This document shows positions 21,599 through 37,191 of a stretch of 64,000 nt of DNA, one piece after another; within the stretch, counting starts at the first letter, position 1; every line of letters begins with the position of its first letter. The stretch lies in sequence record ON568341.1; one strand, written 5' to 3'. The translations under genes and the position numbers were made by a program. The notes under the pieces were generated by a model. That model had not been told where the DNA came from and did no database searches. It was given only the letters and a program-made list of their open reading frames with translations. Source of the DNA: Escherichia phage UE-S1.

Positions 21599-22700
21599 TT
21601 AAACACATATAGACAGGGGAAGCTCCGTAGTGGAAGCATTATACAGGCTTTAACATATGTTGCATATGTTAAAATTCAGCCTGGACAAATGCGATCACTA
21701 GGATTCTCCCCAGGCTAAACCCCGTAACTCTACAGAGAAGCCAATAGCTTCTCTTTGTCATAGGTAGTCATAAGTAATCATATATAAACATTTAAGTAAT
21801 CATTCATACGCACGGTAGTGATTAGTATTGAGTACTAGAGTACAGGAATGTTCACGTTTAATCAAGAACGTAGCAGTACTGCCCCAAAAGTATTCAGTAC
21901 TGAAGGTGTCGATATCCCACTAAGTAGGCAGAGGAAGTCTGCCGTACTTTGTAGTTTCCAAGCTCCTTTTCCATTTTTCAAATTACATCAAATGTATTCA
22001 AAAGTAATCACGTAATGATTAGTACTGAATTATTACTTTCACCTTAATTCCAAATACTCTTTTACCCTTCGGGGAAAATCCCATTACCCCTTGAGGCTCC
22101 AGCAAAAAGTTGGAAAGTACTCCATCGTAAATCTGGATCGTAAAAATTTTGGAGTACCTATGAAATAAAAGTTGGATCTTCGAAAGTTGAAATTTACGTT
22201 GGGACATATAGGATTGATGGGATATAATGAGTTTTGTAGAGATACAGATTATACGATTTCAGTACTGAATAATGAAAGAAAGCTATTGACTTTATGATTC
22301 AGTACTGTATAATGTTCTATATAGAGAGATGAGTTGCCGCAAACAATTCATTCACTCTACCTCCTGTCGTGAGACAGTACAGAAAAGATAGTTCCTCCTA
22401 TGGGTGGTACATCTTTTTATAACCTCTTTTTTCGTAATATAAACAGTACTGATATTAACAGAATGGTGTCAGTACTGATTTTAATCTAATACAATACACC
22501 CACCAGCTTGTGCTGGTGGATTATCCACTAACAGTATTCAGTACTACATGATAGTCTTCATCCTCCTAGGGTAACATAGTGAGGGCTATTGTGGGAGTAC
22601 TGAATACTCCTTTCACAAGATAGATCTATGGTATAGTACTGACGGATTTTGGGCGTAGTAAGCCTAGGTTAAATTTAGACGTAGAGATGTCTAGACCTCC

Positions 22701-22830
22701 AGATGGTTGGAAGTAAAGATGGCTATCCCTCTAGGCGGCTGGATGGCTAGATTTCTAGATGGCTGTACTGCTAGACGTTTGGACGGCTAAACGGCTAGAT
22801 GGTTACACGTCTGGAAGTATAGACGGCTAA
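22701..22830. repeat. iteron-like direct repeats (AGAYGGCT / AGATGGTT), CTAG-rich
   Basis: About 8 copies in 130 bp: agatggtt, agatggct, ggatggctag, agatggct, gacggcta, acggctagatggtt, gacggcta. Confidence 0.6.
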
Positions 22831-23452
22831 ATCAAAATTTTTATTCTGTTTTTTCCAATAGTTCCCCTACCGCGTGAGGATGTTTTTCCCCGCAGTATCT
22901 GGTGTTAGATTTTTCTGAATCTGGAATCATTATCTAATAAACTGGGGGCAATGTCAACGGCCTGGATGAATATTTTTAAAAAATAATCTAGTACTAAATT
23001 TTGGGCGTAACTATGCACCCGGTGGGCTTGAGTCTTTCTCGACTTGATGAAATAATTATATCAGTACTGGAAAAATAAAGCAATACCATGGAAGCAAAAA
23101 AGTTTTAATTAATTTGCTTGCTATCCTGGGCCGGACTATGGTACTATATTTCAGTACTGAGAAAGTGCGTTTACCTGCTAGGGTGCGGGAGTGTATCCTT
23201 TTTTTATATCTTGAATTTTGGGCGTAATTCCGCACCCTCTGGGGTTTCCGCTTTCTCGCGTCTATGTAGTAATTATACGCTTTTTTAGTACTGAGTCAAT
23301 AGCCAAAAACAAAATAATTGAAAATAATTTAACGCGTTTAAACGGCCTGTAAAGCCCTGAAATGATTAGAATGGTGCAAATGTATAGCTTAGGTGTATTA
23401 ATGCGTTAGAATGCGTCTGAGGCCGTTTTACGTGGTATAGGGATGATTTAGT

Positions 23453-23547
23453 GGATTGATTCAGTACTGAATAATAGTACTCCTATATAGAAAGATAGTT
23501 CCCCTGGATTGATTCAGTACTGAATAATAGTACTCCTATATAGAAAG
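23453..23547. repeat. tandem direct repeat (2 x 42 bp, 53-bp period)
   Basis: GGATTGATTCAGTACTGAATAATAGTACTCCTATATAGAAAGA at 23453 and 23506. Confidence 0.7.
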
Positions 23548-23579
23548 AAAACTATTTTAAAAGTATTTGTAGAAAGTAC

Positions 23580-23607
23580 TTGCACAGTACTGAAAAAAGC
23601 GTATAAT
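23580..23607 (+). promoter_or_regulatory. early sigma70-type promoter
   Basis: TTGCAC, 16 nt spacer, TATAAT(23602-23607); GTTTTACATC start region then 5' hairpin. Confidence 0.55.
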
Positions 23608-23661
23608 GTTTTACATCGAGAGCGGGAACACTTCCCTACTCACTTTTAAGAGATTAAAACG

Positions 23662-24024
23662 ATGGCGACTCAAATCACTAAAATCATTGCTAACCTGGTT
23701 AACTTCCGCGACGATATGAAAGATCTTCCGGCGGCAACGGTTAAAACTCACATTGACGCATACCGCGAACTGATTAAAATGTTGCCGCTTAAGCGTGAAC
23801 AATACGCCGCTAAACTGATGCTTGATGCGATGATCCATAAGATGATCGCCAGTGATTTGACGATGGTTTATCAGTATATGGGCGAAAATTTCGCGGTGTA
23901 TAGTAAACCAGTACCAGGAATGGAAAGTACAGAAGTATTACACGGTTTAAATTTAAAACAAGATGCATGGGATAATATGCCTCGTTTCCTGGTATGGGCT
24001 GACAGTGGCAAAATTTACGAATAA
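23662..24024 (+). CDS. hypothetical early protein (120 aa)
   Basis: ORF after promoter + leader hairpin; AAGAGA SD-like. Confidence 0.55.
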   Translation: MATQITKIIANLVNFRDDMKDLPAATVKTHIDAYRELIKMLPLKREQYAAKLMLDAMIHKMIASDLTMVYQYMGENFAVYSKPVPGMESTEVLHGLNLKQDAWDNMPRFLVWADSGKIYE

Positions 24025-24037
24025 GTTAAAAATTAGT

Positions 24038-24065
24038 TTGACAGTACTGAATAAAAGCGTATAAT
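24038..24065 (+). promoter_or_regulatory. early sigma70-type promoter
   Basis: TTGACA(24038-24043), 16 nt spacer, TATAAT(24060-24065). Confidence 0.55.
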
Positions 24066-24116
24066 GTTTTACATCAGGTGGGGAATAGTTCCCCACTATA
24101 TAAGAGGATTAAAAAA

Positions 24117-24356
24117 ATGGCTAAATCAAAAATGTTCTTAGGTCACAAAAACAAAACTCATTGGAATGTAAGCCTGTGGATTAATAACGATGAGGGATTG
24201 TATCGGTTGGCCCTGGACTTTATTGCCGCCCATACTAATCGCAATGATGCGGCCCGTCATATGATGTTATTTTTAGAACAGACTGGACAAGATAAAACAC
24301 CGGACGGATTCAAATATAGCACTACTGCGATCCGTGCGGCGATGGTTGGAATGTAA
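24117..24356 (+). CDS. hypothetical early protein (79 aa)
   Basis: ATG 24117 after AAGAGGA SD; paralog of 26157..26396 (KNKTHWNVSLWINN..TPDGFKYSTTAIRAAMVGM). Confidence 0.55.
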   Translation: MAKSKMFLGHKNKTHWNVSLWINNDEGLYRLALDFIAAHTNRNDAARHMMLFLEQTGQDKTPDGFKYSTTAIRAAMVGM

Positions 24357-24442
24357 TAGAATTTATTTAAAGTACTATCATTTTTTTGCGATAGTACTTT
24401 ATAATAGTGTTTTATTCATACACCAACGATAAGGGCAACAGC

Positions 24443-24709
24443 ATGAATATTAAGTATTTTGCGACGCGTGAACAAGCTCGGATCGCCGCACGCCAGGACG
24501 GGGCAACGTTTAAAGATATGGGCGTACAATCGGAACGTGGTAAACGTTGGGCCATTGTAAAGCGTAGTACCGCCAGATCATTACAGTACTGGTTAGCGGC
24601 CTTAAAAAGTCCCGATAGTGTATCGCGTCGAGTGGTAGAAATAAAGCTCGACCGAAAGGGCAACCGCGTGACTGTGTACCGTACTAAAAAGATTGCAGTA
24701 CTTGAATAA
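24443..24709 (+). CDS. hypothetical early protein (88 aa)
   Basis: ATG 24443; paralog of 36151..36546 (FATREQARIAARQ..DRKGNRVTVY). Confidence 0.5.
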   Translation: MNIKYFATREQARIAARQDGATFKDMGVQSERGKRWAIVKRSTARSLQYWLAALKSPDSVSRRVVEIKLDRKGNRVTVYRTKKIAVLE

Positions 24710-24716
24710 AAAGTAC

Positions 24717-24744
24717 TTGCAAACTATGTTTAAAGGCGTATAAT
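24717..24744 (+). promoter_or_regulatory. early sigma70-type promoter
   Basis: TTGCAA(24717-24722), 16 nt spacer, TATAAT(24739-24744); leader hairpin GCGGGAACTCTTCCCGC. Confidence 0.55.
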
Positions 24745-24796
24745 GTTTTACATCGAGAGCGGGAACTCTTCCCGCCTATAACCTGGAGTAATAAAA

Positions 24797-25027
24797 ATGA
24801 CTAATATGTATATGACTGAAGTTAAAACCGTAAAAGATACTACCACGAATAAAACTACTTACTTACAGCGGATCTGTGGTGTATGGCAACGTATCAGCAA
24901 ATCAAAGTACTTTAAATTAACATCATATGCAAACCGTTCGGATTCATTCAGTACTGAAATAAAAGGTAATAAAGTACACCAATACGGCACTTATTATTAT
25001 TACAGCCTGGACGCGATTGCAGTATAA
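24797..25027 (+). CDS. hypothetical early protein (76 aa)
   Basis: ORF after promoter/hairpin; GGAG SD. Confidence 0.5.
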   Translation: MTNMYMTEVKTVKDTTTNKTTYLQRICGVWQRISKSKYFKLTSYANRSDSFSTEIKGNKVHQYGTYYYYSLDAIAV

Positions 25028-25278
25028 TCATATTTTTTGAAAAATTTACAATTGCCGGTATTGACTTATTTTGTCAGTACTGGCATAATGTATTCATTGG
25101 CAGATAAGCCGTAGCCCATAGGGTGCGGGAGTGTATCTATAGAAAAATTAGTTTAGTATAGTTACAATTGTGCACCCGGTGGGTTAGCTGTTGTCATGGG
25201 GTATATTATGCCAGTACTTGATAATGCTGTCAATACTTTTTTTACTATTCAGTACTGAAAACTATTTTTAAAAAGTAC

Positions 25279-25306
25279 TTGCTAACTATGTTTAAAGGCG
25301 TATAAT
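25279..25306 (+). promoter_or_regulatory. early promoter (upstream of tandem promoter pair)
   Basis: TTGCTA, 16 nt spacer, TATAAT(25301-25306). Confidence 0.5.
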
Positions 25307-25400
25307 GTTTTACATCAGGACGGGGAACGAAATAAGTAACCCCGTTAAGTAGTCCAGGAGTAAGACATACGAAAAACTCCCCTGATAAAATAGTTTGACA
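25301..25400. repeat. 100-bp exact repeat (copy 1) carrying structured leader
   Basis: Appears identical by eye to 35214..35313. Confidence 0.7.
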
Positions 25401-25422
25401 AATGTTTTTAAAAGCGTATAAT
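25395..25422 (+). promoter_or_regulatory. early promoter (downstream of tandem promoter pair)
   Basis: TTGACA(25395-25400), 16 nt spacer, TATAAT(25417-25422). Confidence 0.5.
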
Positions 25423-25454
25423 ACTTACATCAACTACTGAATGAGGGTTACAAA

Positions 25455-26066
25455 ATGAAAACTATCACTACTACTACTTTTGTTATGGCTTTTTCTGAAC
25501 TGAACGCAGAACAAAAAACGGCGGCTATCGAACTGGTTCGGGATCGTGAGCGTTCATGTGAGGATAATTTCTTTGCTGAGGGCGTTATCGAGTACTATAA
25601 AGAAACAGTACTACCAGAATACGGCATAGATGAAGCTGAATTGCAATACAGTGGTTTTTGGTCGCAAGGTGACGGTGCATCAATCAGTACTGACAGCGTG
25701 GACGCGGAGAAGTTTTTACGCAAGATTAAAGCGTTAACGAAATATCGTTCTATCCGTCACTTGTTGAATGAAGATGATTTGGCAATGAGTGTAGAACGTT
25801 CACACTCTCGCTACGCACACGAAAACACGGTAAGCGGTTGCGTTGATACTCGCTACACTGATTTAACTGTAAAACAAGCGGCACTTGCTGATGACCTGGA
25901 AAACTTACTGACTGATGCGATCCGTGAATTATCTCGTAAGTTGTACCGTGATTTAGAGAATGCATATGAGGATCAATTCACTACTGAAAACATTACTGCA
26001 CTGATTGAGGGTAACGAATATCAATTCAATGTTATTGATGGCGTAGTGGAATCAATCGAATATTAA
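25455..26066 (+). CDS. hypothetical early protein (203 aa)
   Basis: ORF after dual promoters; GAGGG SD. Confidence 0.55.
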   Translation: MKTITTTTFVMAFSELNAEQKTAAIELVRDRERSCEDNFFAEGVIEYYKETVLPEYGIDEAELQYSGFWSQGDGASISTDSVDAEKFLRKIKALTKYRSIRHLLNEDDLAMSVERSHSRYAHENTVSGCVDTRYTDLTVKQAALADDLENLLTDAIRELSRKLYRDLENAYEDQFTTENITALIEGNEYQFNVIDGVVESIEY

Positions 26067-26078
26067 TTCAAAAAGTAC

Positions 26079-26106
26079 TTGTAAACTAAGTTTAAAAGCG
26101 TATAAT
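26079..26106 (+). promoter_or_regulatory. early sigma70-type promoter
   Basis: TTGTAA, 16 nt spacer, TATAAT(26101-26106); hairpin GCGGGGAGTGGTTCCCCGC. Confidence 0.5.
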
Positions 26107-26156
26107 ACTTTACATCAAGGCGGGGAGTGGTTCCCCGCTCAAACGAGGATTTAAAA

Positions 26157-26396
26157 ATGGCTAGTACTAAAACTTACAACGGACACAAAAACAAAACTCA
26201 TTGGAATGTAAGCCTTTGGATTAATAACGGTGAGTCATTGTATCGGCTTGCACAAAGTTGCATCGCACAAAGTAGAACTAAAGATATTGCTGCGGAATGT
26301 ATGTACCGCAGATTAAAAGCCAACGGTACTACTACAACACCGGACGGATTCAAATATAGCACTACTGCGATCCGTGCTGCAATGGTTGGAATGTAA
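26157..26396 (+). CDS. hypothetical early protein (79 aa)
   Basis: ATG 26157 after ACGAGGA SD; paralog of 24117..24356. Confidence 0.55.
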   Translation: MASTKTYNGHKNKTHWNVSLWINNGESLYRLAQSCIAQSRTKDIAAECMYRRLKANGTTTTPDGFKYSTTAIRAAMVGM

Positions 26397-26453
26397 TATT
26401 CAGTACTGAGATAATGGCGGGTAATAGTTCCCGCCTTTACTGAGGGTTATCTA

Positions 26454-26714
26454 ATGAGTAAAGTAATTAGCTATACAGCACTAAGCAAGACATTATCTAT
26501 TAGCCAGTGCACCGATGGTTATTGGCTATTTGATGAAACGCGTGGCATGAATTTAGCCATGCGTGCAAAAACTGCTGAGGCGGCGTATCTTGAAGCATTG
26601 GAATACTACCAGGAACGTTTAAAGGAAGTAGAAGAAGATTATAAAAGCCTCAAAGCGAAAGTAGATCATTTCGTCGGTCAATTCATCGAGGAAGACGACG
26701 ACAAACAATATTGA
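26454..26714 (+). CDS. hypothetical early protein (86 aa)
   Basis: ORF with GAGGG SD. Confidence 0.5.
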   Translation: MSKVISYTALSKTLSISQCTDGYWLFDETRGMNLAMRAKTAEAAYLEALEYYQERLKEVEEDYKSLKAKVDHFVGQFIEEDDDKQY

Positions 26715-26722
26715 AAAAGTAC

Positions 26723-26750
26723 TTGCAATTAGTTTTCAGTACTGTATAAT
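26723..26750 (+). promoter_or_regulatory. early sigma70-type promoter
   Basis: TTGCAA(26723-26728), 16 nt spacer, TGTATAAT(26743-26750). Confidence 0.55.
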
Positions 26751-26800
26751 GGTTTACATCAAAGGGAGAAATGGTTCTCCCTGGTAATGAGGAAAATAAA

Positions 26801-27022
26801 ATGGCTAATATCACTACTCTTTCCCAACTGGAAGCACTGGTGAAATCTATGCGGGAACATGCCGACAAAATCGGCGTACAAGATCCAGCCGTTTGCTTCT
26901 GCGACGAATTGAATGATGATACACTGGTAATAGCAGAAGTCCAGGACGTTTCTAACTATTCCTCGCGTTACACTGGCGGCGTAGCAAATAAAGGCGACTT
27001 CTGTTTATACCTTACAAAATAA
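26801..27022 (+). CDS. hypothetical early protein (73 aa)
   Basis: ATG 26801 after TGAGGAAA SD and leader hairpin GGGAGAAATGGTTCTCCC. Confidence 0.5.
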   Translation: MANITTLSQLEALVKSMREHADKIGVQDPAVCFCDELNDDTLVIAEVQDVSNYSSRYTGGVANKGDFCLYLTK

Positions 27023-27190
27023 CAACGCGGGGAGATAATAACTCCCCGTTACTTTTTCAGTACTGAATCATTTAATAGACGGATCTCGGCACCCGGTGGG
27101 TTAGTGACTGTTTCGTCTTGATGTAGTAATTATGCCAGTACTGGATGCACTTGTCAACAACTATTTTTCAAATACTTTTTATTAAAATAC

Positions 27191-27218
27191 TTGCAATTAG
27201 TTTTTAAACGCGTATAAT
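27191..27218 (+). promoter_or_regulatory. early sigma70-type promoter
   Basis: TTGCAA(27191-27196), 16 nt spacer, TATAAT(27213-27218). Confidence 0.55.
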
Positions 27219-27265
27219 GTTTTGCATAGGGGGAGCGGTTCCCCTGGTAACTAAGGAATAAGAAA

Positions 27266-27502
27266 ATGCTCGAACAAATCAAATCAACGTCTGCGAATGT
27301 AACGGGAACTGTATCACACTTTACTAGTGATGAATCGCGTGGTGTTCCTTATTGTGCTGTACATGTAAACACTGATGGCAACTACTGGTTTACGGTTTAC
27401 GGATCATATTCATTTGGTCGGCCAGGACATCAAAAAATCCTGGATAAAGTACAGCCAACGGGTAAAAATATCACTGCTGAAATGTTTTATAAAAAATCAT
27501 AA
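27266..27502 (+). CDS. hypothetical early protein (78 aa)
   Basis: ORF after leader hairpin GGGGGAGCGGTTCCCC; AAGGAA SD. Confidence 0.5.
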   Translation: MLEQIKSTSANVTGTVSHFTSDESRGVPYCAVHVNTDGNYWFTVYGSYSFGRPGHQKILDKVQPTGKNITAEMFYKKS

Positions 27503-27507
27503 AGTAC

Positions 27508-27535
27508 TTGATAATAGTTTTTAGTACTGTATAAT
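27508..27535 (+). promoter_or_regulatory. early sigma70-type promoter
   Basis: TTGATA, 16 nt spacer, TGTATAAT(27528-27535). Confidence 0.5.
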
Positions 27536-27586
27536 ATTTTACATCGCAAGGGGGAGCGGTTCCCCCTGGTAACTAAGGATAATAAA

Positions 27587-27886
27587 ATGAAAATTGCAAT
27601 CATCGCCCTGGCTTTATCTGTTTCCTCTTTCGCTGTTAATGCGTCATTAGATGTAAGTAGTGAAAAATTCATTCAGTGCACTGTTGCAATGACCGATGAA
27701 AGTACTGGCGAGATTGTATTAAAGGATTTAGAGATCCAGCCGGAAGCATTTAAAAACGGCCCGTTCCATGAAGAAGACGAAAACGGTAGCACATCAATTT
27801 ATTATGATGCCAGTACTAAACGCGGTTCGGTCACTGTAATGGATACTGAGAAAGTAACGCATACCGGCGTTATTAATTGCCGTTGA
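27587..27886 (+). CDS. small secreted/periplasmic protein (signal peptide)
   Basis: N-term MKIAIIALALSVSSFAVNA-S resembles Sec signal peptide with AxA cleavage site. Confidence 0.5.
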   Translation: MKIAIIALALSVSSFAVNASLDVSSEKFIQCTVAMTDESTGEIVLKDLEIQPEAFKNGPFHEEDENGSTSIYYDASTKRGSVTVMDTEKVTHTGVINCR

Positions 27887-27907
27887 TAGATACTACGGGG
27901 TAACATC

Positions 27908-28138
27908 ATGACTAAGCGAATTGTTTTACTTAACGAAAGCAGTACTACACAACTACTTAACGCCGTGCATTATGATATTGAAACGAGCGTTAATCTTATC
28001 AGTACTGTAGTACTGTTGGACACTGGAAAGGTCGCCAATGATAAAGCGATTGCAGGTATATTAACGGATCTTGAGCCTGGTAGCAGTGCACCAATAACGT
28101 TAAATGGTAAAGTGTTTAATATTTTACTCACTGATTAA
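27908..28138 (+). CDS. hypothetical early protein (76 aa)
   Basis: ORF with GGGG SD-like; followed by terminator. Confidence 0.45.
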   Translation: MTKRIVLLNESSTTQLLNAVHYDIETSVNLISTVVLLDTGKVANDKAIAGILTDLEPGSSAPITLNGKVFNILLTD

Positions 28139-28144
28139 GTACAT

Positions 28145-28166
28145 AGCCCACCTGGTGGGCTTTTTT
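28145..28166 (+). terminator. intrinsic terminator
   Basis: AGCCCACCTGGTGGGCT hairpin + TTTTTT. Confidence 0.6.
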
Positions 28167-28220
28167 GTTTTTGTAGTATCGTAGTACTGAGATACTTTGA
28201 AAATAGTTTTAAGAAAGTAG

Positions 28221-28248
28221 TTGACATTACCGCAGAAAAGCGTAGAAT
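28221..28248 (+). promoter_or_regulatory. early sigma70-type promoter
   Basis: TTGACA(28221-28226), 16 nt spacer, TAGAAT; followed by ~120 nt structured leader. Confidence 0.45.
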
Positions 28249-28371
28249 GTATTACATCAAGACGGGGAGCACTAAGTAGACCGCCAGTAAGTCGAACGAA
28301 AAACTGGACACGTCGAGAAAACTTTGATACACTAATAAACGTAAACTAAACTTTAATTGAGGATTTATAAA

Positions 28372-28854
28372 ATGGCTAATGTAAAATCATTTCTGAAAGC
28401 ACTGATTTCTAACGACACTGCTATTGCGGCTGAATTGCTGGCGGATCTGGATAGCGATACCATGAAAGCAGTACGCAACAATTTTAACATTGCGTACAGT
28501 GAAGCTAAAGAACTGCAAGCCAAAAAGATAGCAGAACTGGAAGAACAGAAAAAAGCCCGTGAAGAAGAACTACAAGCAACGATTGAAAGTATTCAGGCGG
28601 CGGTTGCAGGGTTGGATCTGGAAGTAGTTATTGAAATGGCACATAAAGCACTGGCAGTTAAGTACGGGGAAGATAAGCCAGTAACTAAACCTAAAAAATG
28701 GATTCAGGAACGCGTAACGGTTGTTCTTGATAATGGCGAGGAACATTTAATTCCCGTGCGTGGTAACTGCATTGCGGTAGTTCTGGATGCTATCAAAGAA
28801 AGCGGATTGACTCGCGAGGAATGGATCGAAGCTCACCGCAAAATTGAAGCATAA
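28372..28854 (+). CDS. hypothetical early protein (160 aa)
   Basis: ATG 28372 after TGAGGA SD; track ORF 28357 trimmed. Confidence 0.5.
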   Translation: MANVKSFLKALISNDTAIAAELLADLDSDTMKAVRNNFNIAYSEAKELQAKKIAELEEQKKAREEELQATIESIQAAVAGLDLEVVIEMAHKALAVKYGEDKPVTKPKKWIQERVTVVLDNGEEHLIPVRGNCIAVVLDAIKESGLTREEWIEAHRKIEA

Positions 28855-28875
28855 CAATTAAAGTACTGAATCACT

Positions 28876-28902
28876 AGCCCACTTCTTATAGTGGGCTTTT
28901 TT
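28876..28902 (+). terminator. intrinsic terminator
   Basis: AGCCCAC-ttcttata-GTGGGCT hairpin + TTTTTT. Confidence 0.6.
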
Positions 28903-29129
28903 GTGTTTATCGTTTACCAGTCCACTAGCACCGCCTAGAATCGATTCTAACGCATTAAACTGATTATCTGATGAATAGCCCTAGCTGGTGGCGTTAATGC
29001 CGTTAGAAAGCGATTGAGGACGTTTAAAGTATTTTGCAAAAAGTAATAAAAAGTACTTGCACGATTAAGAGATTAGAGTATAATTAATTACATCAAGACA
29101 AGACACCTTAACTAACTGAGGATATAAAG

Positions 29130-29282
29130 ATGAATACTTATGAACTGGATTGTTTCACTTTACAAGTAATGTCAGTATGCAGTAAAAAAGATTGGTCATC
29201 AAAGGAATTTAAAGCAGTTATTGCGTGTGCAAAACACGGCAAGACTATCAATGAAACGGCATCAATCATTGATAAACTTTAA
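29130..29282 (+). CDS. small early protein (50 aa)
   Basis: TGAGGA SD; preceded by TTGCAC..TATAAT promoter; under ORF-track cutoff. Confidence 0.4.
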   Translation: MNTYELDCFTLQVMSVCSKKDWSSKEFKAVIACAKHGKTINETASIIDKL

Positions 29283-29290
29283 AAAATAGT

Positions 29291-29319
29291 TTGACAATAG
29301 TTTTAAGTACTGCGATAAT
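29291..29319 (+). promoter_or_regulatory. early sigma70-type promoter
   Basis: TTGACA(29291-29296), 17 nt spacer, GATAAT. Confidence 0.45.
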
Positions 29320-29354
29320 ACATACATCAACTACTGAATAGGAATAAAAAAACA

Positions 29355-29582
29355 ATGGCTATCATCATTACTTACGTATCTGGTACTACTGGCACTGCTT
29401 CAACTGTTGCTGTAATTACTAATAAGAAAGGAGCGGAATTACATTTTGCAATGGATAATTGGGCCGTGAAGGAGTTCGGACCGTGGGCAAGTGTAGCATA
29501 CATTGAAACCTATCAAGTGCCATCGATTAGCTTAACTGATTTAGGTGTAGATCGAATCTTATGCCTGGATGAATTAATTTAA
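29355..29582 (+). CDS. hypothetical early protein (75 aa)
   Basis: ORF downstream of promoter; weak SD. Confidence 0.45.
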   Translation: MAIIITYVSGTTGTASTVAVITNKKGAELHFAMDNWAVKEFGPWASVAYIETYQVPSISLTDLGVDRILCLDELI

Positions 29583-29668
29583 AAAAGTACTTGCAAAGTA
29601 AATCGAATAAAGTATAATACATTACATCAAGGGGAGAAAATGGTTCTCCCCACTAAGAGGAAACTAAT

Positions 29669-29812
29669 ATGAAAACTTGTCAATGTGGTAAAAAATCTAT
29701 TACTGGTTTGAAACGGGGCGTTGCACTTTGCCAGTACCATTATAATTTACAAGTATGGGGTAAAGAATGGGCCGATCAAGTGGAAGCAATTAAGAAAGCA
29801 AAAAGTAAGTAA
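29669..29812 (+). CDS. small Cys-containing early protein (47 aa)
   Basis: AGAGGAAA SD after leader hairpin GGGGAGAAAATGGTTCTCCCC; CxC..C pattern. Confidence 0.4.
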   Translation: MKTCQCGKKSITGLKRGVALCQYHYNLQVWGKEWADQVEAIKKAKSK

Positions 29813-29893
29813 AAATATTATCACAGTACTATTGACATAGATTGATAGTACTGGCATAATAGATTTTATCAAGACAACTAAGAGGAAATTAAA

Positions 29894-30238
29894 ATGGCTA
29901 ACATCAATACTATAGCAGCACAAAATATTAACCTGTCTTCTGTTGAAGTTGTACACATTGCCGCCCGGCGTTGGTTCCAGGCGTCTTATGGTAATACTTA
30001 TTTCTCTTTAACGGTAGATGTTGAAATCAATGGCGAATTTATTGAAGTAGTAAACGTGCCGTTCCAATATGGCTACGGGGATCATTTTGACACTGTAGCA
30101 ATGGAAGAATTTAGCAAGGTTATTAATATGGAAGGTAAAGAGTTTTTACGCGGTTCTTATCTTTCCCGTTTTTGCCGTGATAATAATATTACTGTTTATA
30201 GTTCTGTTAGTGATGTTAAACGCAAAAAAGATCTTTAA
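29894..30238 (+). CDS. hypothetical early protein (114 aa)
   Basis: AGAGGAAA SD; paralog of 35732..36055 (shared ..YGYG.. and C-terminal DVKRKKD). Confidence 0.55.
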   Translation: MANINTIAAQNINLSSVEVVHIAARRWFQASYGNTYFSLTVDVEINGEFIEVVNVPFQYGYGDHFDTVAMEEFSKVINMEGKEFLRGSYLSRFCRDNNITVYSSVSDVKRKKDL

Positions 30239-30318
30239 TTAGCTTTACTTTATGCAGATACTTTGATATAGTGTCTGCATAGGGGAAAGAAATTAAATCA
30301 ACTTAAGAGGATAGTAAA

Positions 30319-30588
30319 ATGAAAAATATCAGTACTTTAATCGATGCAGGCACACATGTTCGTCGGTCTATGGTTGCAACCAGTTCTACAAAACAAGTAG
30401 CGAGCGGTTATCTTGTATTTGTGCACGATGGAAAACTCCTGGAACGTTCAATCAATTTTGATGTTAAAAACAATTGCCGTTTTATTATCTTTAAGCGTGA
30501 GCAATATAAAATTGATTTACCAGCAAAGCCCATTAGTGGGGCGTACAACGTGCAATCATTGTTTGAGCGTCAACCATACACCTATTAA
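30319..30588 (+). CDS. hypothetical early protein (89 aa)
   Basis: AAGAGGA SD. Confidence 0.5.
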   Translation: MKNISTLIDAGTHVRRSMVATSSTKQVASGYLVFVHDGKLLERSINFDVKNNCRFIIFKREQYKIDLPAKPISGAYNVQSLFERQPYTY

Positions 30589-30639
30589 TCAAAACAACGT
30601 TAGCGGTCGATTTAGGCCGCTTATACTGGGGATTATATA

Positions 30640-30810
30640 ATGAATACTAATCAAGTACTGAACGAGATTGAAAGCATCATTAAACCGATGAAGCGTACTG
30701 ATGCAATGTTAACACCGGAAGAATGCCGCTTATATGAGCGTTACAGCGTCGAACAAGTCCAGGCAATGGCCCGTATCCGTCCGGTTGCCAGTACTGATAA
30801 GGCGGCGTAA
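30640..30810 (+). CDS. small early protein (56 aa)
   Basis: GGGG SD-like; TAATATG coupling to next gene. Confidence 0.4.
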   Translation: MNTNQVLNEIESIIKPMKRTDAMLTPEECRLYERYSVEQVQAMARIRPVASTDKAA

Positions 30811-30811
30811 T

Positions 30812-31021
30812 ATGCTTACTGTACAGGATAAGATCGACATCTTAAAGGTTAATATGTATGTGATTGATGCCGTACCTGGTAAAGTATTTGCATACGATGA
30901 CACCACTGTAAGCAATTTCTACTATAGCCAGGACGTGGGGGATCTTTCTGTACAGTCGGTTATTGAAAATGTAGTTAATGCAGCGTATGAGCATTTACTT
31001 TCAAATAGTACTTGCAATTAG
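30812..31021 (+). CDS. hypothetical early protein (69 aa)
   Basis: ATG 30812 immediately after upstream stop; track ORF 30734 trimmed. Confidence 0.45.
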   Translation: MLTVQDKIDILKVNMYVIDAVPGKVFAYDDTTVSNFYYSQDVGDLSVQSVIENVVNAAYEHLLSNSTCN

Positions 31022-31090
31022 TTTTCAGTACTGTATAATGTTTTACATGAAGGGGAGAAATAGTACTCCCCACTAATTAAGGAATATGAA

Positions 31091-31237
31091 ATGAAAGCAT
31101 CAAAAAAGAGTAATACTAAGAAAGCATGTTCACCTTTCGCTGGGGTATTCCCTTTACGTTTCGTTGATGAAGTGGTTTCCTACCCGCCGGGCCTTACTCC
31201 TGAGATGGTAGAAAGTTTGCGTAAATCTAAAAAATAA
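31091..31237 (+). CDS. small early protein (48 aa)
   Basis: AAGGAA SD after promoter TTGCAA..TGTATAAT and leader hairpin. Confidence 0.4.
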   Translation: MKASKKSNTKKACSPFAGVFPLRFVDEVVSYPPGLTPEMVESLRKSKK

Positions 31238-31318
31238 TACTTGCAATTAGTTTTTAGTACTGTATAATGTTTTACATGAAGGGGAGAAATGATTCTCCCC
31301 AAGAACAGGAGAAACAAA

Positions 31319-31471
31319 ATGAAACAATACAACGCTCGGTTTGATGTTACTATCGGCAACGGCAAAGGTCAATTCTCTTTCAGTACTCGTAAGAGTTATA
31401 CAGAAAACTTCTTGCGTAATTGTGCACTGACCGCCGCACAAATTAAACATTATTTTCAGGCTAAAAAATGA
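31319..31471 (+). CDS. small early protein (50 aa)
   Basis: ATG 31319 after CAGGAGAAA SD and leader hairpin GGGGAGAAATGATTCTCCCC. Confidence 0.45.
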   Translation: MKQYNARFDVTIGNGKGQFSFSTRKSYTENFLRNCALTAAQIKHYFQAKK

Positions 31472-31706
31472 AATCATTAGCTTATTATAGTTCGGCCCTG
31501 GTCGGTGCATTGATCGCGGCATTGTTAGTAGCTTATCTATTCTTTATGGTGATTTAAATGAATCCTAACGGTATAATTTACAGTACTCCTAAAACGAAAG
31601 CAGATAAAGCTAAAGCACGTAAAGCGAAAGTAAAGGAATACATCAAGCAAGGCATGACACGAAAGGCGGCGATTCTAAAAGCTAAAAATAAATGAAAAAA
31701 GTGGTT

Positions 31707-31744
31707 GACTTCGGTCAGCCATTTTGCTATTATATAATCATTGA
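31707..31744 (+). terminator. terminator hairpin with embedded promoter (composite element)
   Basis: GTGGTTGACTTCGGTCAGCCA + TTTTGCTATTATATAATC; TTGACT inside stem. Confidence 0.5.
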
Positions 31745-31837
31745 GAGATAGCTCACTAGCCCACGGGGTGCGGGAGTGTATCTATTATATAAGCATTGAG
31801 TACTGAAAACTATTTTAAAAGTATTTGCAGAAAGTAC

Positions 31838-31865
31838 TTGCAAACTATCTCAATTGGCGTATAAT
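31838..31865 (+). promoter_or_regulatory. early sigma70-type promoter
   Basis: TTGCAA(31838-31843), 16 nt spacer, TATAAT(31860-31865). Confidence 0.55.
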
Positions 31866-31916
31866 GTTTTACATCGCAAGGGGAAACGGTTTCCCCTAGT
31901 AATAAGGAATAAAATC

Positions 31917-32258
31917 ATGACTATTGCAATTGTACAATCTAACTTTGAAAATGAAATCATCGCCCAAGCACTGCGTTTAAATGATGGTCGGGCCGAAATT
32001 AATTACGGTTTCAATTCAGGCGGTTGTGAAAAATATCAGTACTTTATAACTGCTGATGGCGGTGTCCTGGGTATTAATACAGTTATTGTAAACATTCAGA
32101 AAATTAATTTCAATGATCCAGACGATAGCCAGTTTTACATTATAGGCGTAGACGTGAACTATGAGGATGACTCACTAACTGATGATTACACTGGCGAGAA
32201 GTTAGAAAGTGCATACGGTGAAGATGATTATCAGTCAGTACCAGAAGATTTCGAATAA
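31917..32258 (+). CDS. hypothetical early acidic protein (113 aa)
   Basis: ATG 31917 after TAAGGAAT SD and leader hairpin GGGGAAACGGTTTCCCC. Confidence 0.55.
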   Translation: MTIAIVQSNFENEIIAQALRLNDGRAEINYGFNSGGCEKYQYFITADGGVLGINTVIVNIQKINFNDPDDSQFYIIGVDVNYEDDSLTDDYTGEKLESAYGEDDYQSVPEDFE

Positions 32259-32358
32259 TATTAAAAAATAGTTTGACAATAGATTATAGTACTGTATAAT
32301 AGTTTACATCAAGAAACGGGAAGTAACAGTACTTCCCTACTAACAGAGAGAAAACAAA

Positions 32359-32571
32359 ATGGCTGATATCCGCACTTTACTGAAAAATGCAAAACGAGTT
32401 TTATTTTCTGATCACGAACATTTAAACAAGGATATTACTGGCGTTCGGAATATCAAAGATGTAAAACGTGTTATGGGTATCTATTGCAATATGAAACGTG
32501 TTGGCACGTTCGGTAATAAATTTCTATACCAGGCGGGGGATTACAATTTTACACTGACTATCATTAACTAA
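32359..32571 (+). CDS. hypothetical early protein (70 aa)
   Basis: AGAGAGAAA SD after hairpin; promoter TTGACA..TGTATAAT upstream. Confidence 0.5.
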   Translation: MADIRTLLKNAKRVLFSDHEHLNKDITGVRNIKDVKRVMGIYCNMKRVGTFGNKFLYQAGDYNFTLTIIN

Positions 32572-32653
32572 AAATATTATCACAGTACTATTGACATAGT
32601 TTGATAGTACTGGCATAATAGATTTTATCAACTACACTACTAAGGAATTAAAA

Positions 32654-32833
32654 ATGGCTATCATCGCAAAAACTGAAATCATCGGCCTGGATTCTATCAT
32701 CATGACGTTTGAAGATCAAAAAGGTATGTATGTAGTTTCCTATGGTGATTATGTTCGGGAGTATGAAACAGTAGACGAAGCCTTTGAAAGTTACATTCGC
32801 CAGGTGAATAAAGCATACGACGATTACCGCTAA
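32654..32833 (+). CDS. small early protein (59 aa)
   Basis: TAAGGAAT SD; promoter TTGACA..GGCATAAT upstream. Confidence 0.45.
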   Translation: MAIIAKTEIIGLDSIIMTFEDQKGMYVVSYGDYVREYETVDEAFESYIRQVNKAYDDYR

Positions 32834-32946
32834 AATATATTACCAGTACTATTAAAGATATTGACAACGTTTGATAGTACTGGCATAATAAGTTTTATAA
32901 ACAGTAGTCAAATAGTAGTTAACTTAACAAAAGAGAGAGAAACAAA

Positions 32947-33090
32947 ATGATCGCACTGGATTCATTCATCGATGCAGTTCTGGCAAAAACTGGCGAGGAT
33001 CTGACCGCAGAACAATACGCAATGATCGAGCAATGCCAGCAAGACGGTAAATCGGTGAAAGATACTGTTAAGATTATCCGCAAGATGTAA
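32947..33090 (+). CDS. small early protein (47 aa)
   Basis: AGAGAGAGAAA SD-like; followed by hairpin AGCCCAT..GGTGGGCT. Confidence 0.4.
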   Translation: MIALDSFIDAVLAKTGEDLTAEQYAMIEQCQQDGKSVKDTVKIIRKM

Positions 33091-33196
33091 GATTATAAGC
33101 CCATTAGTTAACGCTGGTGGGCTTTAATCATTTACCCTATACAATGCCAGTACTAAACCGTTTATCTCATTAGAATGCATTACAGGACGTTTAACA

Positions 33197-33394
33197 ATGA
33201 TTAGCATGAAATCAGTACAAAAACAAATAGAAACATTATCAAAAATTAAACGTAAACAGTACTCATTAGAATATAATATCAATGGTAACTATCATCTAAT
33301 GAAAGAGAATAATTTTATCGTCATTGATGAATCATTGCAAATTATTAGTATAGTACTGAAAGCATTAATTAATGATAGAAAAAGGTTAAAATAA
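33197..33394 (+). CDS. hypothetical protein (65 aa)
   Basis: ORF; TAATG coupling to zinc-finger gene. Confidence 0.45.
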   Translation: MISMKSVQKQIETLSKIKRKQYSLEYNINGNYHLMKENNFIVIDESLQIISIVLKALINDRKRLK

Positions 33395-33651
33395 TGGCAG
33401 TAGGATTCGCGAAAGATGGAGCCGAGCAAGATGAGATTAACGCAGTTATTCAAGCCGCCGTTAACCACGCTAGAAAGCAAATTAACGCACAAATAGAATC
33501 ACTGATACATTGCCTCGACTGCGGCGATAAAATCCCTGAGAATCGCCGACAGGCTGTTAAGGGATGTAAGTACTGCATTAATTGCCAAGTGGATCATGAT
33601 AGTACTTTTAAAAGAGATCCGCGTAATTGTTGGCATAGATCTATGAGATAA
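33394..33651 (+). CDS. C4 zinc-finger protein (DksA/TraR-like)
   Basis: C-x2-C (HCLDCGD) ... C-x2-C (KYCINC) spacing typical of DksA/TraR-type zinc fingers. Confidence 0.55.
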   Translation: MAVGFAKDGAEQDEINAVIQAAVNHARKQINAQIESLIHCLDCGDKIPENRRQAVKGCKYCINCQVDHDSTFKRDPRNCWHRSMR

Positions 33652-33715
33652 AAAGTAATTGACAGTACTGAAAGATAGTGTATAATGTTTTATATCTTAA
33701 CTGAGGATAGAAATC

Positions 33716-34072
33716 ATGGGAATACAACATATCACGCGGACCACTGACAATGGCGAGATCACTGGTTATCAAGTACAGGGCAAAGTAGCACAATTGCAGT
33801 ACTGGTTTGTTAAACGTGGAATCATTGCACCGGATCTTGATTATGACCGTGTAGCGTTTATTGATTCTCTTTATGTTGATCCTGATAGTCGGGGCAATGG
33901 TGAAGGTAACGAATTAATGAATGCCTTTATCGATGCCGCCGATGATTCAGATTGTATCATCTTAGAATGCGATACGGGAGAAGATAACGCCTTTAATCTT
34001 AAAGAATGGTACGAAGGATTCGGATTCGAGGTACTGATCGATAGTGAATATCCTATCATGATTTTATCATAG
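33716..34072 (+). CDS. GNAT-family acetyltransferase-like protein
   Basis: LYVDPDSRGNGEGNELMNAF resembles GNAT motif A (R/Q-x-x-G-x-G/A); promoter TTGACA..TGTATAAT upstream. Confidence 0.5.
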   Translation: MGIQHITRTTDNGEITGYQVQGKVAQLQYWFVKRGIIAPDLDYDRVAFIDSLYVDPDSRGNGEGNELMNAFIDAADDSDCIILECDTGEDNAFNLKEWYEGFGFEVLIDSEYPIMILS

Positions 34073-34150
34073 TACTTGCATTTAGTTTTCAGTACTGTTA
34101 TAGTACTTGCATCAAGGGGAAACATCTTCCCCTACTAAGAGGAAATAAAA

Positions 34151-34339
34151 ATGGAAAACTTATCAAGTATTTTAGTACAAGATGATTTCGGTAATCCTGG
34201 AAGTGCTATCATTGTTCGGGGCAATAAAGCAACGTTTGTTATTGCTGGTGGACCCGTACAGCGTAGCATTAAAAATAATGCTGTTACCATTAATAATGTA
34301 CGCTATCGCTTAGATAAAGAATTAATTCATAAACTGTAA
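34151..34339 (+). CDS. hypothetical early protein (62 aa)
   Basis: AAGAGGAAA SD after leader hairpin. Confidence 0.5.
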   Translation: MENLSSILVQDDFGNPGSAIIVRGNKATFVIAGGPVQRSIKNNAVTINNVRYRLDKELIHKL

Positions 34340-34424
34340 AAAAGTACTGGACAATAGATTATAGTACTGTATAATAGTTTACATGAAGGGGAGAAATGAT
34401 TCTCCCCACTAAGAGGAAAGAAAA

Positions 34425-34637
34425 ATGCAAGGTCAACTAATCGTTCGTAAATGGTCTGATACTAACGAAAAACCGTGGGATGTACAATACATCGCCCCAA
34501 ATGGTGAATCCAGATATCAACCAGGTGTAACGCATAGTACTGAGCAATTCGCCGCCGCTCATCGCGAACGTCTGTTACAATCAATGCAGCACGGTTCCGG
34601 TGAAAAATTCATTCAGGATCATTGGCTGAAAGATTAA
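34425..34637 (+). CDS. hypothetical early protein (70 aa)
   Basis: AAGAGGAAA SD after hairpin GGGGAGAAATGATTCTCCCC. Confidence 0.5.
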   Translation: MQGQLIVRKWSDTNEKPWDVQYIAPNGESRYQPGVTHSTEQFAAAHRERLLQSMQHGSGEKFIQDHWLKD

Positions 34638-34723
34638 AAAGTACTTGCACAGTACTGAATAAAGTGTATAATGTTTTATATCGGAAGGGGAATAGTTCCC
34701 CTCCTAACAAAGAGGAAAGTATA

Positions 34724-34897
34724 ATGGTCCAGGTAGAATTAACAGTACTGAAAGATCTGTTTTATCGGATTGGTACTACTGGCGAATATCCGAAGGGTGA
34801 TAATGCAAAACTTTACGTATCACTCGACTTATGGCAACGCGAACAATTAGCAACGGCCTGGCGTAAAGGCAAAGCAGATAGCGAGGTGAAAGCATGA
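34724..34897 (+). CDS. hypothetical early protein (57 aa)
   Basis: ATG 34724 after AGAGGAAA SD; track ORF 34622 trimmed. Confidence 0.45.
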   Translation: MVQVELTVLKDLFYRIGTTGEYPKGDNAKLYVSLDLWQREQLATAWRKGKADSEVKA

Positions 34898-35057
34898 AAG
34901 AATTCTTATTTGAAGTAGTGTTTCAAGGTGTCGGTAATAACCAACTGATTCGAACAAGTGGTTATAATGTTAACCAGGCATGGAATAACATTAAACAAAT
35001 GTACCCGAACGCTATCACATATCGCAACCCGAAAGAAGTTTAAAAATAATTGAAAAA

Positions 35058-35095
35058 GGGATTGACTCCGGTCAGTCCCTTTGCTATTATATACG
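35058..35095 (+). terminator. terminator hairpin with embedded promoter (composite element)
   Basis: AAAAAGGGATTGACTCCGGTCAGTCCCTTTGCTATTATATA. Confidence 0.55.
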
Positions 35096-35191
35096 CATAG
35101 AAACAAATTAGCCCACCGGGTGCATAAATGTATCTATTGTTTGCTGGTGGCTAGTACTATCAAGTACTGAAAACTATTTTTAAAAAAGTAC

Positions 35192-35219
35192 TTGCAAAGT
35201 ATCACGATAAGCGTATAAT
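35192..35219 (+). promoter_or_regulatory. early promoter (upstream of tandem pair)
   Basis: TTGCAA(35192-35197), 16 nt spacer, TATAAT(35214-35219). Confidence 0.55.
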
Positions 35220-35313
35220 GTTTTACATCAGGACGGGGAACGAAATAAGTAACCCCGTTAAGTAGTCCAGGAGTAAGACATACGAAAAACTCCCCTGATA
35301 AAATAGTTTGACA
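35214..35313. repeat. 100-bp exact repeat (copy 2)
   Basis: Appears identical by eye to 25301..25400. Confidence 0.7.
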
Positions 35314-35335
35314 ATAGAAAGTAAACGAGTATAAT
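35308..35335 (+). promoter_or_regulatory. early promoter (downstream of tandem pair)
   Basis: TTGACA(35308-35313), 16 nt spacer, TATAAT(35330-35335). Confidence 0.5.
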
Positions 35336-35368
35336 ACTTACATCAACCACTGATAAGGAAACATTAAA

Positions 35369-35644
35369 ATGCGGACTTTACTTACAGCTAACGAAATCGA
35401 GCAAGTACTGACTACTAATCTGGAACAATGGAAACGTGAAGCAGATATCCAGGCGGTTCAATGCCTTAACGATAAGTTAACGCCAGATGACTTAAGCACG
35501 ATTGTTGATCCACAATTTTATGAAGATATTCACGACACGTCTTTAAGCGTCGAGGATGTACTTGATAAGCACTACATTGATACTGATTTACATGTTTACG
35601 GTCGTAAAAACTTTATCACTATTCACGACATTTACAATACTTAA
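35369..35644 (+). CDS. hypothetical early protein (91 aa)
   Basis: ORF after dual promoters; AAGGAAA SD. Confidence 0.55.
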   Translation: MRTLLTANEIEQVLTTNLEQWKREADIQAVQCLNDKLTPDDLSTIVDPQFYEDIHDTSLSVEDVLDKHYIDTDLHVYGRKNFITIHDIYNT

Positions 35645-35731
35645 GTATTGACAAAGTATCTTAGTACTGTATAATAGTTTACATCAAGCGAGGGGAATGG
35701 TTCCCCTCCTAACAAAGAGAGAGAAATAAAA

Positions 35732-36055: not shown

Positions 36056-36150
36056 TAGAATCCATTTAAAGTACTATTTGACATTGCCCAGATAGTACTT
36101 TATAATAGACTCTAACTTGTAGTACTAACTCAACTAATAGGATGTATACC

Positions 36151-37134: not shown

Positions 37135-37191
37135 TTGACAGTACTCAAATGTTTTAGTACTATATGTACATACCAACACGGGGGAAACAAA

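Follow-up and report, generated by a model that had tools for sequence, protein, structure and literature searches.

Here, we report that a 64000-nucleotide stretch of DNA from Escherichia phage UE-S1 (sequence record ON568341.1), called the window below, carries an array of short direct repeats that is, by its sequence, of the met-box operator class, the operators to which the host repressor MetJ binds. The array lies in a region without convincing open reading frames (ORFs), inside what homology indicates to be the direct terminal repeat of the genome, and arrays of the same kind occur near the genome ends of three families of phages. The reading that we favor, at a probability of about 50%, is that the array would be bound by host MetJ together with S-adenosylmethionine (SAM) and form a nucleoprotein landmark tied to the genome ends.

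The array (22676-22828) consists of 19 head-to-tail 8-bp units, in array order TAGACGTA GAGATGTC TAGACCTC CAGATGGT ... TAGACGGC, with zero insertions or deletions. As first phased, the unit reads T-R-G-A-N-G-K-C; with the frame moved by +1 base (22677-22828), it reads A-G-A-Y-G-K-C-T. The tetranucleotide CTAG is present six times in the whole array, which corresponds to 39 per kb against 1.3 per kb across the window (30-fold enrichment). An earlier note, made from the letters alone, had described 22701-22830 as a CTAG-rich, iteron-like cluster in which AGA(T/C)GG(C/T)T recurs about eight times in 130 bp. The repeats are confirmed as real and far beyond chance, and all of the motif occurrences share one register modulo 8; the strict 8-bp tandem period had been missed. 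The count of about eight holds for looser forms of the motif (RGAYGKYT eight times and RGAYGGYT seven times) and fails for the strict AGAYGGYT, with just five copies, and GGCTAGATGG, which was said to be a frequent form, occurs only once in that segment. The density of CTAG (five copies in 22701-22830) was borne out, as was the stretch of about 2 kb without convincing ORFs, which measures approximately 2.06 kb (21599-23661) and in which all ORFs are at most 62 amino acids long. When the repeat was sought elsewhere, as the note had proposed, a unit scan of the 64-kb window returned one such array, namely, this one. Tandem Repeats Finder did not report the array, because its units are too degenerate.

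The met box is the 8-bp operator unit, with the consensus AGACGTCT, of the SAM-dependent repressor MetJ, which binds as one homodimer per box and requires at least two adjacent boxes (PMC3228920, PMC4239095, PMC2775130). The units were scored with the published MetJ weight matrix and thresholds (Augustus & Spicer; PMC3228920, Table 3), by which a box scores at least a quarter of the consensus (3.15 of 12.58 bits) and a site comprises at least two directly adjacent boxes in the same register with a summed score no lower than that of the consensus. Sixteen of the 19 units reached 3.15 bits, the total was approximately 111 bits, and the best unit scored 11.19 out of 12.58 bits. Three contiguous runs of boxes, all in one register with single sub-threshold units between them, were the sole matrix sites in the window (Table 1). 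In a control region of the E. coli chromosome (4126000-4135000), the matrix returned only the metJ/metB operator (four boxes, 31.2 bits) and the metF operator (four boxes, 24.9 bits). Among 100 random 64-kb sequences from a first-order Markov model, the mean was 1.9 small sites and the longest run was three boxes.

The agreement with MetJ extends to individual base preferences. When 150 units pooled from nine phages were compared with the matrix, the base frequencies correlated with r = 0.92 in the met-box register, against -0.28 to 0.03 in the other seven registers. The secondary preferences of MetJ were echoed as well, with A over G at position 1 and C over T over A at position 4; at position 3, the pooled frequencies were 0.89 for A and 0.10 for C, against 0.87 and 0.10 in the matrix. 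Thus, the earlier suggestion of a binding-site array for a regulator stands as far as the sequence goes, in that the units score as operator boxes of host MetJ under a published matrix, and binding itself is predicted on that footing.

Like MetJ operators, the array is built of contiguous 8-bp units without spacers, has CTAG at the box junctions, and agrees in base preference at seven of eight positions. Chromosomal MetJ operators generally contain two to five boxes. The array differs from the two scanned E. coli operators in having 19 boxes (7 to 28 in relatives) against 4, and it lies in a phage terminal repeat rather than at a methionine gene or any gene start. The closest gene start (23662) is 834 bp away, whereas MetJ operators are typically within about 75 bp of a start codon, and no methionine- or SAM-pathway family was matched by Pfam among the ORFs of the terminal repeat. 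With no gene starting at the array and none nearby recognized as methionine related, the array is not, by context, a member of the met regulon.

Other identities were tried and rejected. The TrpR operator consensus consists of tandem CTAG sites 8 bp apart with an ACTAGT core; the array has no ACTAGT, and its CTAG flanks are T/G-CTAG-A/G. For a Chi-like array (GCTGGATGG against GCTGGTGG), the units have an extra base, and the true Chi sites lie separately. A sponge for CsrA or another RNA-binding protein, as GGA motifs might suggest, was dropped in view of just four GGA units and a strict period that suits a DNA reading.

The position of the array was placed by comparison with relatives. The array region is 87-96% identical to that of Asteriusvirus jumbo coliphages (such as 121Q, PBECO4, and G17), base 1 of vB_Ec-M-J aligns to window position 21923, and the end of the vB_Ec-M-J repeat aligns to 41804. 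By this homology, the window would be an assembly in which the terminal repeat has been collapsed into one copy, with the left physical end at about 21923, the right boundary of the repeat at about 41804, and a repeat length of about 19.9 kb. The distance from the inferred left boundary to the first unit is 753 bp; because it is inside the repeat, the array would have its other copy about 19 kb in from the right physical end. No second array was found at the other repeat boundary by the unit scan or the MetJ matrix scan of the window.

This placement recurs among jumbo phages. We used records of Asteriusvirus, Mimasvirus, and Eneladusvirus that open at the left end of the terminal repeat or close to it (vB_Ec-M-J, fEgEco12, BF17, CRJP21, E9.1, CBB, XbC2, Serratia phage BF, and the Erwinia SNUABM phages), and in these, the homologous arrays begin at nucleotides 647-764. 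The repeat is annotated in vB_Ec-M-J (direct terminal repeat, 1-21525) and in CBB ("redundant repeat," 1-22456), and the left end has been determined experimentally for fEgEco12 and XbC2, in the latter by PhageTerm with the repeat at the start of the record (PMC11273794). The arrays comprise 7 to 24 units in Asteriusvirus, 15 or 16 in Mimasvirus (CBB, GAP32, and XbC2, the last with 16), and 12 to 17 in Eneladusvirus (BF, SNUABM_12, and fHe-Yen9-04); outside Asteriusvirus, the number ranges from 9 to 28 overall. All differences in length are whole 8-bp units, so the register needed for tandem-dimer binding is kept. The 3' terminus of the third run, TAGACGTTTRGACGGCTAAA, is common to Mimasvirus, Eneladusvirus, and the T7-like phage PGT2.

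Arrays were also found in T5-like phages of Vibrio (Pontus, KIT04, Chester, and about 30 more), Aeromonas (AhSzq-1, with 28 boxes and 221 bits), and Providencia (PR1). These occupy the untranslated region equivalent to the T5 injection stop signal, in which DnaA boxes and a LexA-type palindrome are followed by the array and then directly by the nick motif CTGCGC. The PR1 array (9620-9691) lies in an annotated left terminal repeat of 10,461 bp, and the array of KIT04 (6385-6480) has the same layout. Where UE-S1 has the conserved block 3' of the array (Table 1), the T5-like phages have CCCTCCTGCGCC, their nick-site motif. In the T7-like coliphage PGT2 (Autographiviridae), a scan of IMG/VR with a degenerate pattern revealed a nine-box array at nucleotides 38-109 of the exact 260-bp terminal repeat, and its relative phiKT also bears an array. 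One array copy thus lies less than 1 kb from a physical end in each lineage, namely, the left end in jumbo phages, both ends in PGT2, and the right end in T5-like phages.

Part of this spread probably reflects exchange between phages. A 21-mer of PGT2, TAGACGTTTAGACGGCTAAAT, is common to Mimasvirus arrays. In vB_Ec-M-J, positions 2557-2772 (coding sequence EcMJ_003, the third gene of the terminal repeat) have approximately 85% DNA identity over 216 bp to PGT2 gp03, and EcMJ_003 is 82% identical to genes of phi92/phAPEC8-like phages, which indicates that unrelated coliphages have recently exchanged genes between their early regions. Since PGT2 shares the 21-mer with Mimasvirus and an early gene with the jumbo-phage repeat, horizontal transfer of the array as a module is likely.

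Very regular 8-bp arrays that score as met boxes were also observed in four viral contigs from IMG/VR, at L044 7257-7544, L033 3337-3456, L038 8193-8304, and L042 18-81. The units were (AGATGTCY)x36 (356 bits), (GGACGGTT)x15, and (GGATGGCT)x8-14. Three of the four arrays are within a few hundred bp of a contig end, and that in L033 is internal. Since assemblies tend to break at tandem repeats, the placement of these arrays at contig ends may be either real or an artifact and was not counted toward a terminal position.

The T5 injection stop signal is a close known parallel in layout. It too is free of ORFs and dense in repeats, and it lies some 0.5-1 kb in from one boundary of a long direct terminal repeat; in the T5-like phages PR1, KIT04, Pontus, and AhSzq-1, the array itself sits between the DnaA and LexA-type boxes and the nick-site motif. 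There are also differences. The window has no DnaA-box pairs or LexA-type palindrome by pattern search of 21000-24500 and no nick-site motif or DRD repeat seen in its sequence, whereas DnaA, LexA-type, nick, and DRD elements are all present in PR1, Pontus, and T5. No A1/A2 DNA-transfer family was matched by Pfam among the terminal-repeat ORFs, with the coverage of A1/A2 by Pfam unchecked. Moreover, the geometry is mirrored (left boundary here, right boundary in T5), and two-step transfer is not known for this phage group. The array resembles the T5 injection-stop region and is not a member of it as defined by DnaA-box pairs, DRD, and A1/A2.

T7 offers a further comparison. Its SRL and SRR arrays (CCTAAAG) likewise consist of short direct repeats adjacent to or within an exact terminal repeat; they differ in being irregularly spaced 7-mers of unrelated sequence with zero met-box score. 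To our knowledge, the function of SRL and SRR is unsettled.

A role linked to the genome ends is favored because the array lies in the terminal repeat, with one copy less than 1 kb from a physical end, in three families. From the matrix match and this placement, we infer that MetJ binds and that the complex has a function. Host MetJ, a ribbon-helix-helix (RHH) dimer with SAM as corepressor, would coat the array cooperatively as a "super-operator," giving a predicted protein filament about 150 bp long. Such a landmark would most likely act at the repeat boundary as packaging begins and/or at a pause in DNA transfer like that of the T5 injection-stop region, with MetJ as an accessory host factor analogous to integration host factor (IHF) at lambda cosB. 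Lambda, T7, and T5 eject first the DNA that was packaged last. Under this last-in-first-out order, packaging in T5-like and T7-like phages and, by analogy, in the jumbo phage would begin at the end close to the array, and in long-repeat phages, the other array copy would be where a T5-type first-step transfer would halt. The comparisons made here cannot separate an accessory role at the start of packaging from a role as a transfer pause or anchor.

Comparable systems are known. Lambda cosB has an IHF site, and P1 pac has IHF and Dam sites, beside the terminase cut; the concept of a host-protein site at that place is the same, whereas here, there would be a long cooperative array, 38-770 bp from the end, instead of a single bend site. 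Small RHH dimers also coat long arrays of short repeats, with one dimer per unit, in the heptad arrays of omega (pSM19035) and the centromere repeats of ParR and ParG. These systems differ in that their period is 7 bp or 10-12 bp, the binder is plasmid encoded, and the arrays are partition sites or operators; no such protein was found here. A broader proposal, possible although doubtful at present, is that the Rak2-like jumbo myoviruses, the T5-like siphoviruses, and a T7-like podovirus have recruited MetJ as a SAM-gated architectural protein at their genome ends, with a filament on an array of 70-230 bp that marks the start of packaging and/or a pause in transfer, so that a step of the phage cycle would read the SAM status of the host.

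The distribution of hosts bears on the identity of the binder. The 95 array records found by BLAST came from phages of Escherichia, Vibrio, Erwinia, Aeromonas, Salmonella, Providencia, Pectobacterium, Cronobacter, and Serratia and one phage of Xanthomonas, and a query with the window array also matched phages of Yersinia and Klebsiella. MetJ is confined to Enterobacterales, Pasteurellales, Vibrionales, Aeromonadales, and Alteromonadales, among which its motif is conserved, and Xanthomonadales have a different regulator in its place (PMC3228920, PMC4239095). All of the listed hosts except Xanthomonas belong to MetJ-bearing orders. The relatives of the window infect E. coli and Salmonella; all Enterobacterales have MetJ, and it is present in MG1655. 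XaC1, a divergent Rak2-like Xanthomonas phage, has a similar ORF-free leader and a 32-kb repeat placed by PhageTerm, and no met-box site was found in its first 35 kb, which cover the terminal repeat.

A phage-encoded MetJ was rejected. With tblastn of E. coli MetJ against 50,697 phage records, no phage homologue was detected, and the matches obtained were host contamination only. Among the 49 ORFs of the terminal repeat, Pfam recognized no MetJ, RHH, or Rep-like/initiator family; the families that were matched (DksA/TraR, ParE-like, GNAT, and DUF families) do not explain the array. Because neither a phage homologue nor an RHH or MetJ family was found, a host protein is the simplest binder common to the three families.

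Several observations weigh against the end-linked MetJ landmark. At position 6, the pooled units have T in 51% and G in 47%, against 87% and 10% in chromosomal met boxes. Positions 1-3 and 7-8 of the box mirror each other, and position 6 is strand asymmetric; its G occurs in all lineages and costs one predicted contact per dimer. Such a shared deviation might reflect a different binder or common descent. The 16-unit array is retained in XbC2, a phage reported on Xanthomonas, a genus that lacks MetJ, and a strict requirement for MetJ is thereby weakened; XbC2 is more than 50% similar to enterobacterial Mimasviruses. T5 itself infects a MetJ-bearing host and has DRE/DRC repeats in the slot of the array, which includes its calculated first-step-transfer shear point at 9618 (10.1101/866236). 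No met-box array was found in T5 by the unit scan or the MetJ matrix, so the array is not essential for the T5 lifestyle. In addition, the 21-nucleotide stretch that PGT2 shares with Mimasvirus suggests horizontal transfer, so the three lineages count as less than fully independent observations. Relative to the nearest end, the array points one way in jumbo and T7-like phages and the other way in T5-like phages, and the distance from array to repeat boundary varies from 38 to 770 bp across phages.

Two of these points, the position-6 asymmetry as a departure from a symmetric MetJ site and the retention of the array by XbC2, would be accommodated if the binder were not MetJ but another host factor, a small terminase subunit, a virion protein that anchors DNA, or an unrecognized RHH protein, the likeness to met boxes being partial convergence on CTAG-phased DNA. 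Arrays near the ends suit recognition by terminase or of the pac type, and T7 has its different short-repeat array adjoining the terminal repeat. Against this, proteins of matching specificity would have to be present in each of three unrelated families; no DNA-binding family common to these phages was seen, and tblastx of the window against the T5-like loci (a few kb of T5-like genomes) found nothing shared beyond the array. The echo of both primary and secondary MetJ preferences at seven of eight positions, together with the absence of TrpR-type ACTAGT cores, also speaks against another binder, which we consider rather unlikely.

If MetJ does bind, the array might serve as a sponge rather than a landmark. 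Multiplying phage genomes, with about 19 boxes per repeat copy, would titrate MetJ from chromosomal operators; the methionine/SAM regulon (metA, metB, metE, metF, metK, and other genes) would be derepressed; and methionine and SAM would become available for phage proteins and DNA methylation. The terminal position would then be incidental, a matter of noncoding DNA, double dose, and early entry. The sequence evidence for MetJ binding applies equally to this explanation, and the length of the array, four to seven times that of the chromosomal operators tested, is what a competitor should have. A SAM-dependent methyltransferase gene in the early region of T7-like PGT2 fits as well, and jumbo phages use host-type sigma-70 promoters, so host transcription may go on for a while. 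Nevertheless, a sponge leaves unexplained why the array is less than 1 kb from the repeat boundary in three families, and the one or two array copies present at entry are too few to titrate a repressor. T7-like phages degrade host DNA. For T5-like phages, early degradation of host DNA is reported (10.64898/2026.04.02.716235), and with host DNA degraded early, derepression of host genes would be pointless in T5- and T7-like phages. On balance, titration of MetJ is an unlikely primary function.

A replication origin was the other possibility raised by the earlier note; the repeats would then act as iterons or as a DNA-unwinding organizer close to the repeat boundary. A direct-repeat array in a promoter-rich ORF-free region with an A/T-rich tract on its 3' side would fit an origin, as would the change of GC skew from negative to positive at 21.5-22.0 kb. 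The skew changes from approximately -0.2 to approximately +0.1 at 21500-22000, however, which is the inferred physical terminus and lies about 0.7 kb away from the array; minus-strand genes make up 10.5 kb of the negative-skew stretch. Gene orientation alone is insufficient for the switch, since the plus-strand genes at 18.1-21.6 kb, at the extreme right of the unique genome, still have negative skew. No DnaA box (TT[AT]TNCACA) was found in 21000-24500, with one near-match, TTATCCACT, at 22521; no initiator-like protein was recognized in the repeat; and the period is 8 bp rather than the 17-22 bp of an iteron. Homologous arrays in T5-like phages are in the first-step-transfer region, while T5 origins are reported near the genome center (Davison, 10.1101/866236), and the position of the array relative to the physical end is kept in three phage families. 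Given the unit length, the lack of DnaA boxes, and the lack of a Rep-like family in the repeat, the iteron interpretation is not supported, and an origin at this place is very improbable.

An explanation without any DNA-binding protein, as a noncoding RNA or a neutral, slippage-prone minisatellite, is the least credible of those considered. Promoter-like sites face the array from both sides, and unit number changes rapidly between close relatives. However, Rfam gave no match at gathering score in the window and only chance-level matches in 21500-23700. The folding z-scores of the two strands were just -2.4 and -1.8, which the half-palindromic units explain, and the RNA reading was dropped for this weak folding. 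Neutral drift of a satellite is at odds with the conservation of a degenerate consensus, a register, and a position across genera in which the flanks are approximately 70% identical or undetectable.

The surroundings of the array are collected in Table 1. The leader is unannotated in most relatives, and the array with about 50 bp downstream is its best-conserved part across genera.

Table 1. Features of the inferred terminal repeat, leader, and array in window coordinates
Feature	Position	Strand	Remarks
Direct terminal repeat	21923..41804	+	Putative; present once (collapsed assembly); placed by homology to relatives with determined ends
ORF-free terminal leader	21599..23661		Holds the terminus, promoter- and terminator-like sites, Chi hairpin, and array
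Sigma-70-like promoter TTGACT-16-TATAAT	22286..22313	+	Between terminus and array; consensus match only
Inverted Chi pair, hairpin	22498..22521		CCACCAGC at 22500, GCTGGTGG at 22512
ATTTTGGGCGTA motif	22646..22657	+	Directly upstream of array; again at 22998 and 23215
Met-box run 1	22677..22708		Four contiguous boxes, 23.9 bits
Met-box run 2	22733..22764		Four contiguous boxes, 25.9 bits
Met-box run 3	22773..22828		Seven contiguous boxes, 53.2 bits; 3' terminus TAGACGTTTRGACGGCTAAA
Conserved block	22829..22882	+	Directly 3' of array; A/T-rich tract (about 30 bp), then TAGTTCCCCTACCGCG
Sigma-70-like promoter TTGACA-17-GATAAT	22929..22957	-	Leftward into array; consensus match only

The ATTTTGGGCGTA motif is kept upstream of the array in CBB, GAP32, BF, and SNUABM_12. 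The leftward promoter is conserved in Asteriusvirus and was not seen in CBB. A noncoding element that begins with AATTTTGGGCGTAA and contains GCACCC..GGG has leader copies at 22997-23083 and 23200-23276, and the motif is also present at 22646. Its identity with the sequence of Xanthomonas phage XbC2 reaches 88% over 77 bp. The element occurs in CBB, GAP32, fHe-Yen9-04, and XaC1 as well and is far better conserved than the neighboring noncoding DNA; it may encode a small RNA or act as a special promoter. A stretch of about 42 bp (GGATTGATTCAGTACTGAATAATAGTACTCCTATATAGAAAG) is present in two direct copies at approximately 23452-23548, just upstream of the first terminal-repeat gene.

The Chi hairpin lies 577 bp in from the left end, and another 155 bp separate it from the array. 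On the plus strand, Chi occurs nine times, at 22512 (in the hairpin), 28984, 33113, 34244, 35143, 37230, 38635, 40213, and 40436; all of these are within the terminal repeat, and composition predicts 0.2. All nine are oriented for RecBCD entering from the right genome end, and the reverse Chi at 22500 would serve entry from the left. The Chi pair is kept in vB_Ec-M-J, and the injection-stop region of T5-like PR1 has one Chi per orientation (9865 and 10024).

Elsewhere in the window, AGTACT (for example, at 24038-24065) was observed 257 times in 64 kb against about 16 expected, and CAGTACTG was observed 68 times. It is densest at 18-42 kb, sparser past 42 kb, and absent from 44-46 kb and 50-52 kb. 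It often stands just after the -35 hexamer of sigma-70-like promoters (TTGACAGTACTGAATAAAAGCGTATAAT). The leaders of CBB and XaC1 are rich in AGTACT as well, and it could be the site of a regulator or a signature of early promoters. On the minus strand, nine consecutive ORFs of similar size at 7481-18024, eight of 373-396 amino acids and one of 245, make up an oppositely oriented block just short of the right end of the unique region; they are probably paralogues. Immediately past the right repeat boundary, 41872-43951 holds a run of about eight ORFs of 64-90 amino acids, seven with GT(N/D/Q)YQ(E/D/N) near the C terminus and the eighth with a looser variant, suggesting a tandemly amplified family of small genes. 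ARAGORN detected a single tRNA, a tRNA-Cys with anticodon ACA (58070-58154); the usual Cys anticodon is GCA.

In our literature search, we found no paper that links MetJ or met boxes to phages or phage termini. By term search, the array is unmentioned in the genome papers of CBB, fEgEco12, and XbC2 and in the survey by Davison of 25 T5-like injection-stop regions, including that of PR1. If MetJ binds the array, the operator of a metabolic repressor would be a structural element of phage chromosome ends, for which no precedent was found in the literature searched. Should the broader proposal be true, the injection stop signal of T5-like phages, long unexplained, would include MetJ as a host-factor component. 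The array offers a testable handle on what defines that signal and on how the boundaries of long exact terminal repeats are marked. It can also be used as a sequence marker for the physical end of Rak2-like jumbo genomes in assemblies with a collapsed terminal repeat. Finally, the finding suggests that phage development could be coupled to the SAM and methionine status of the host.

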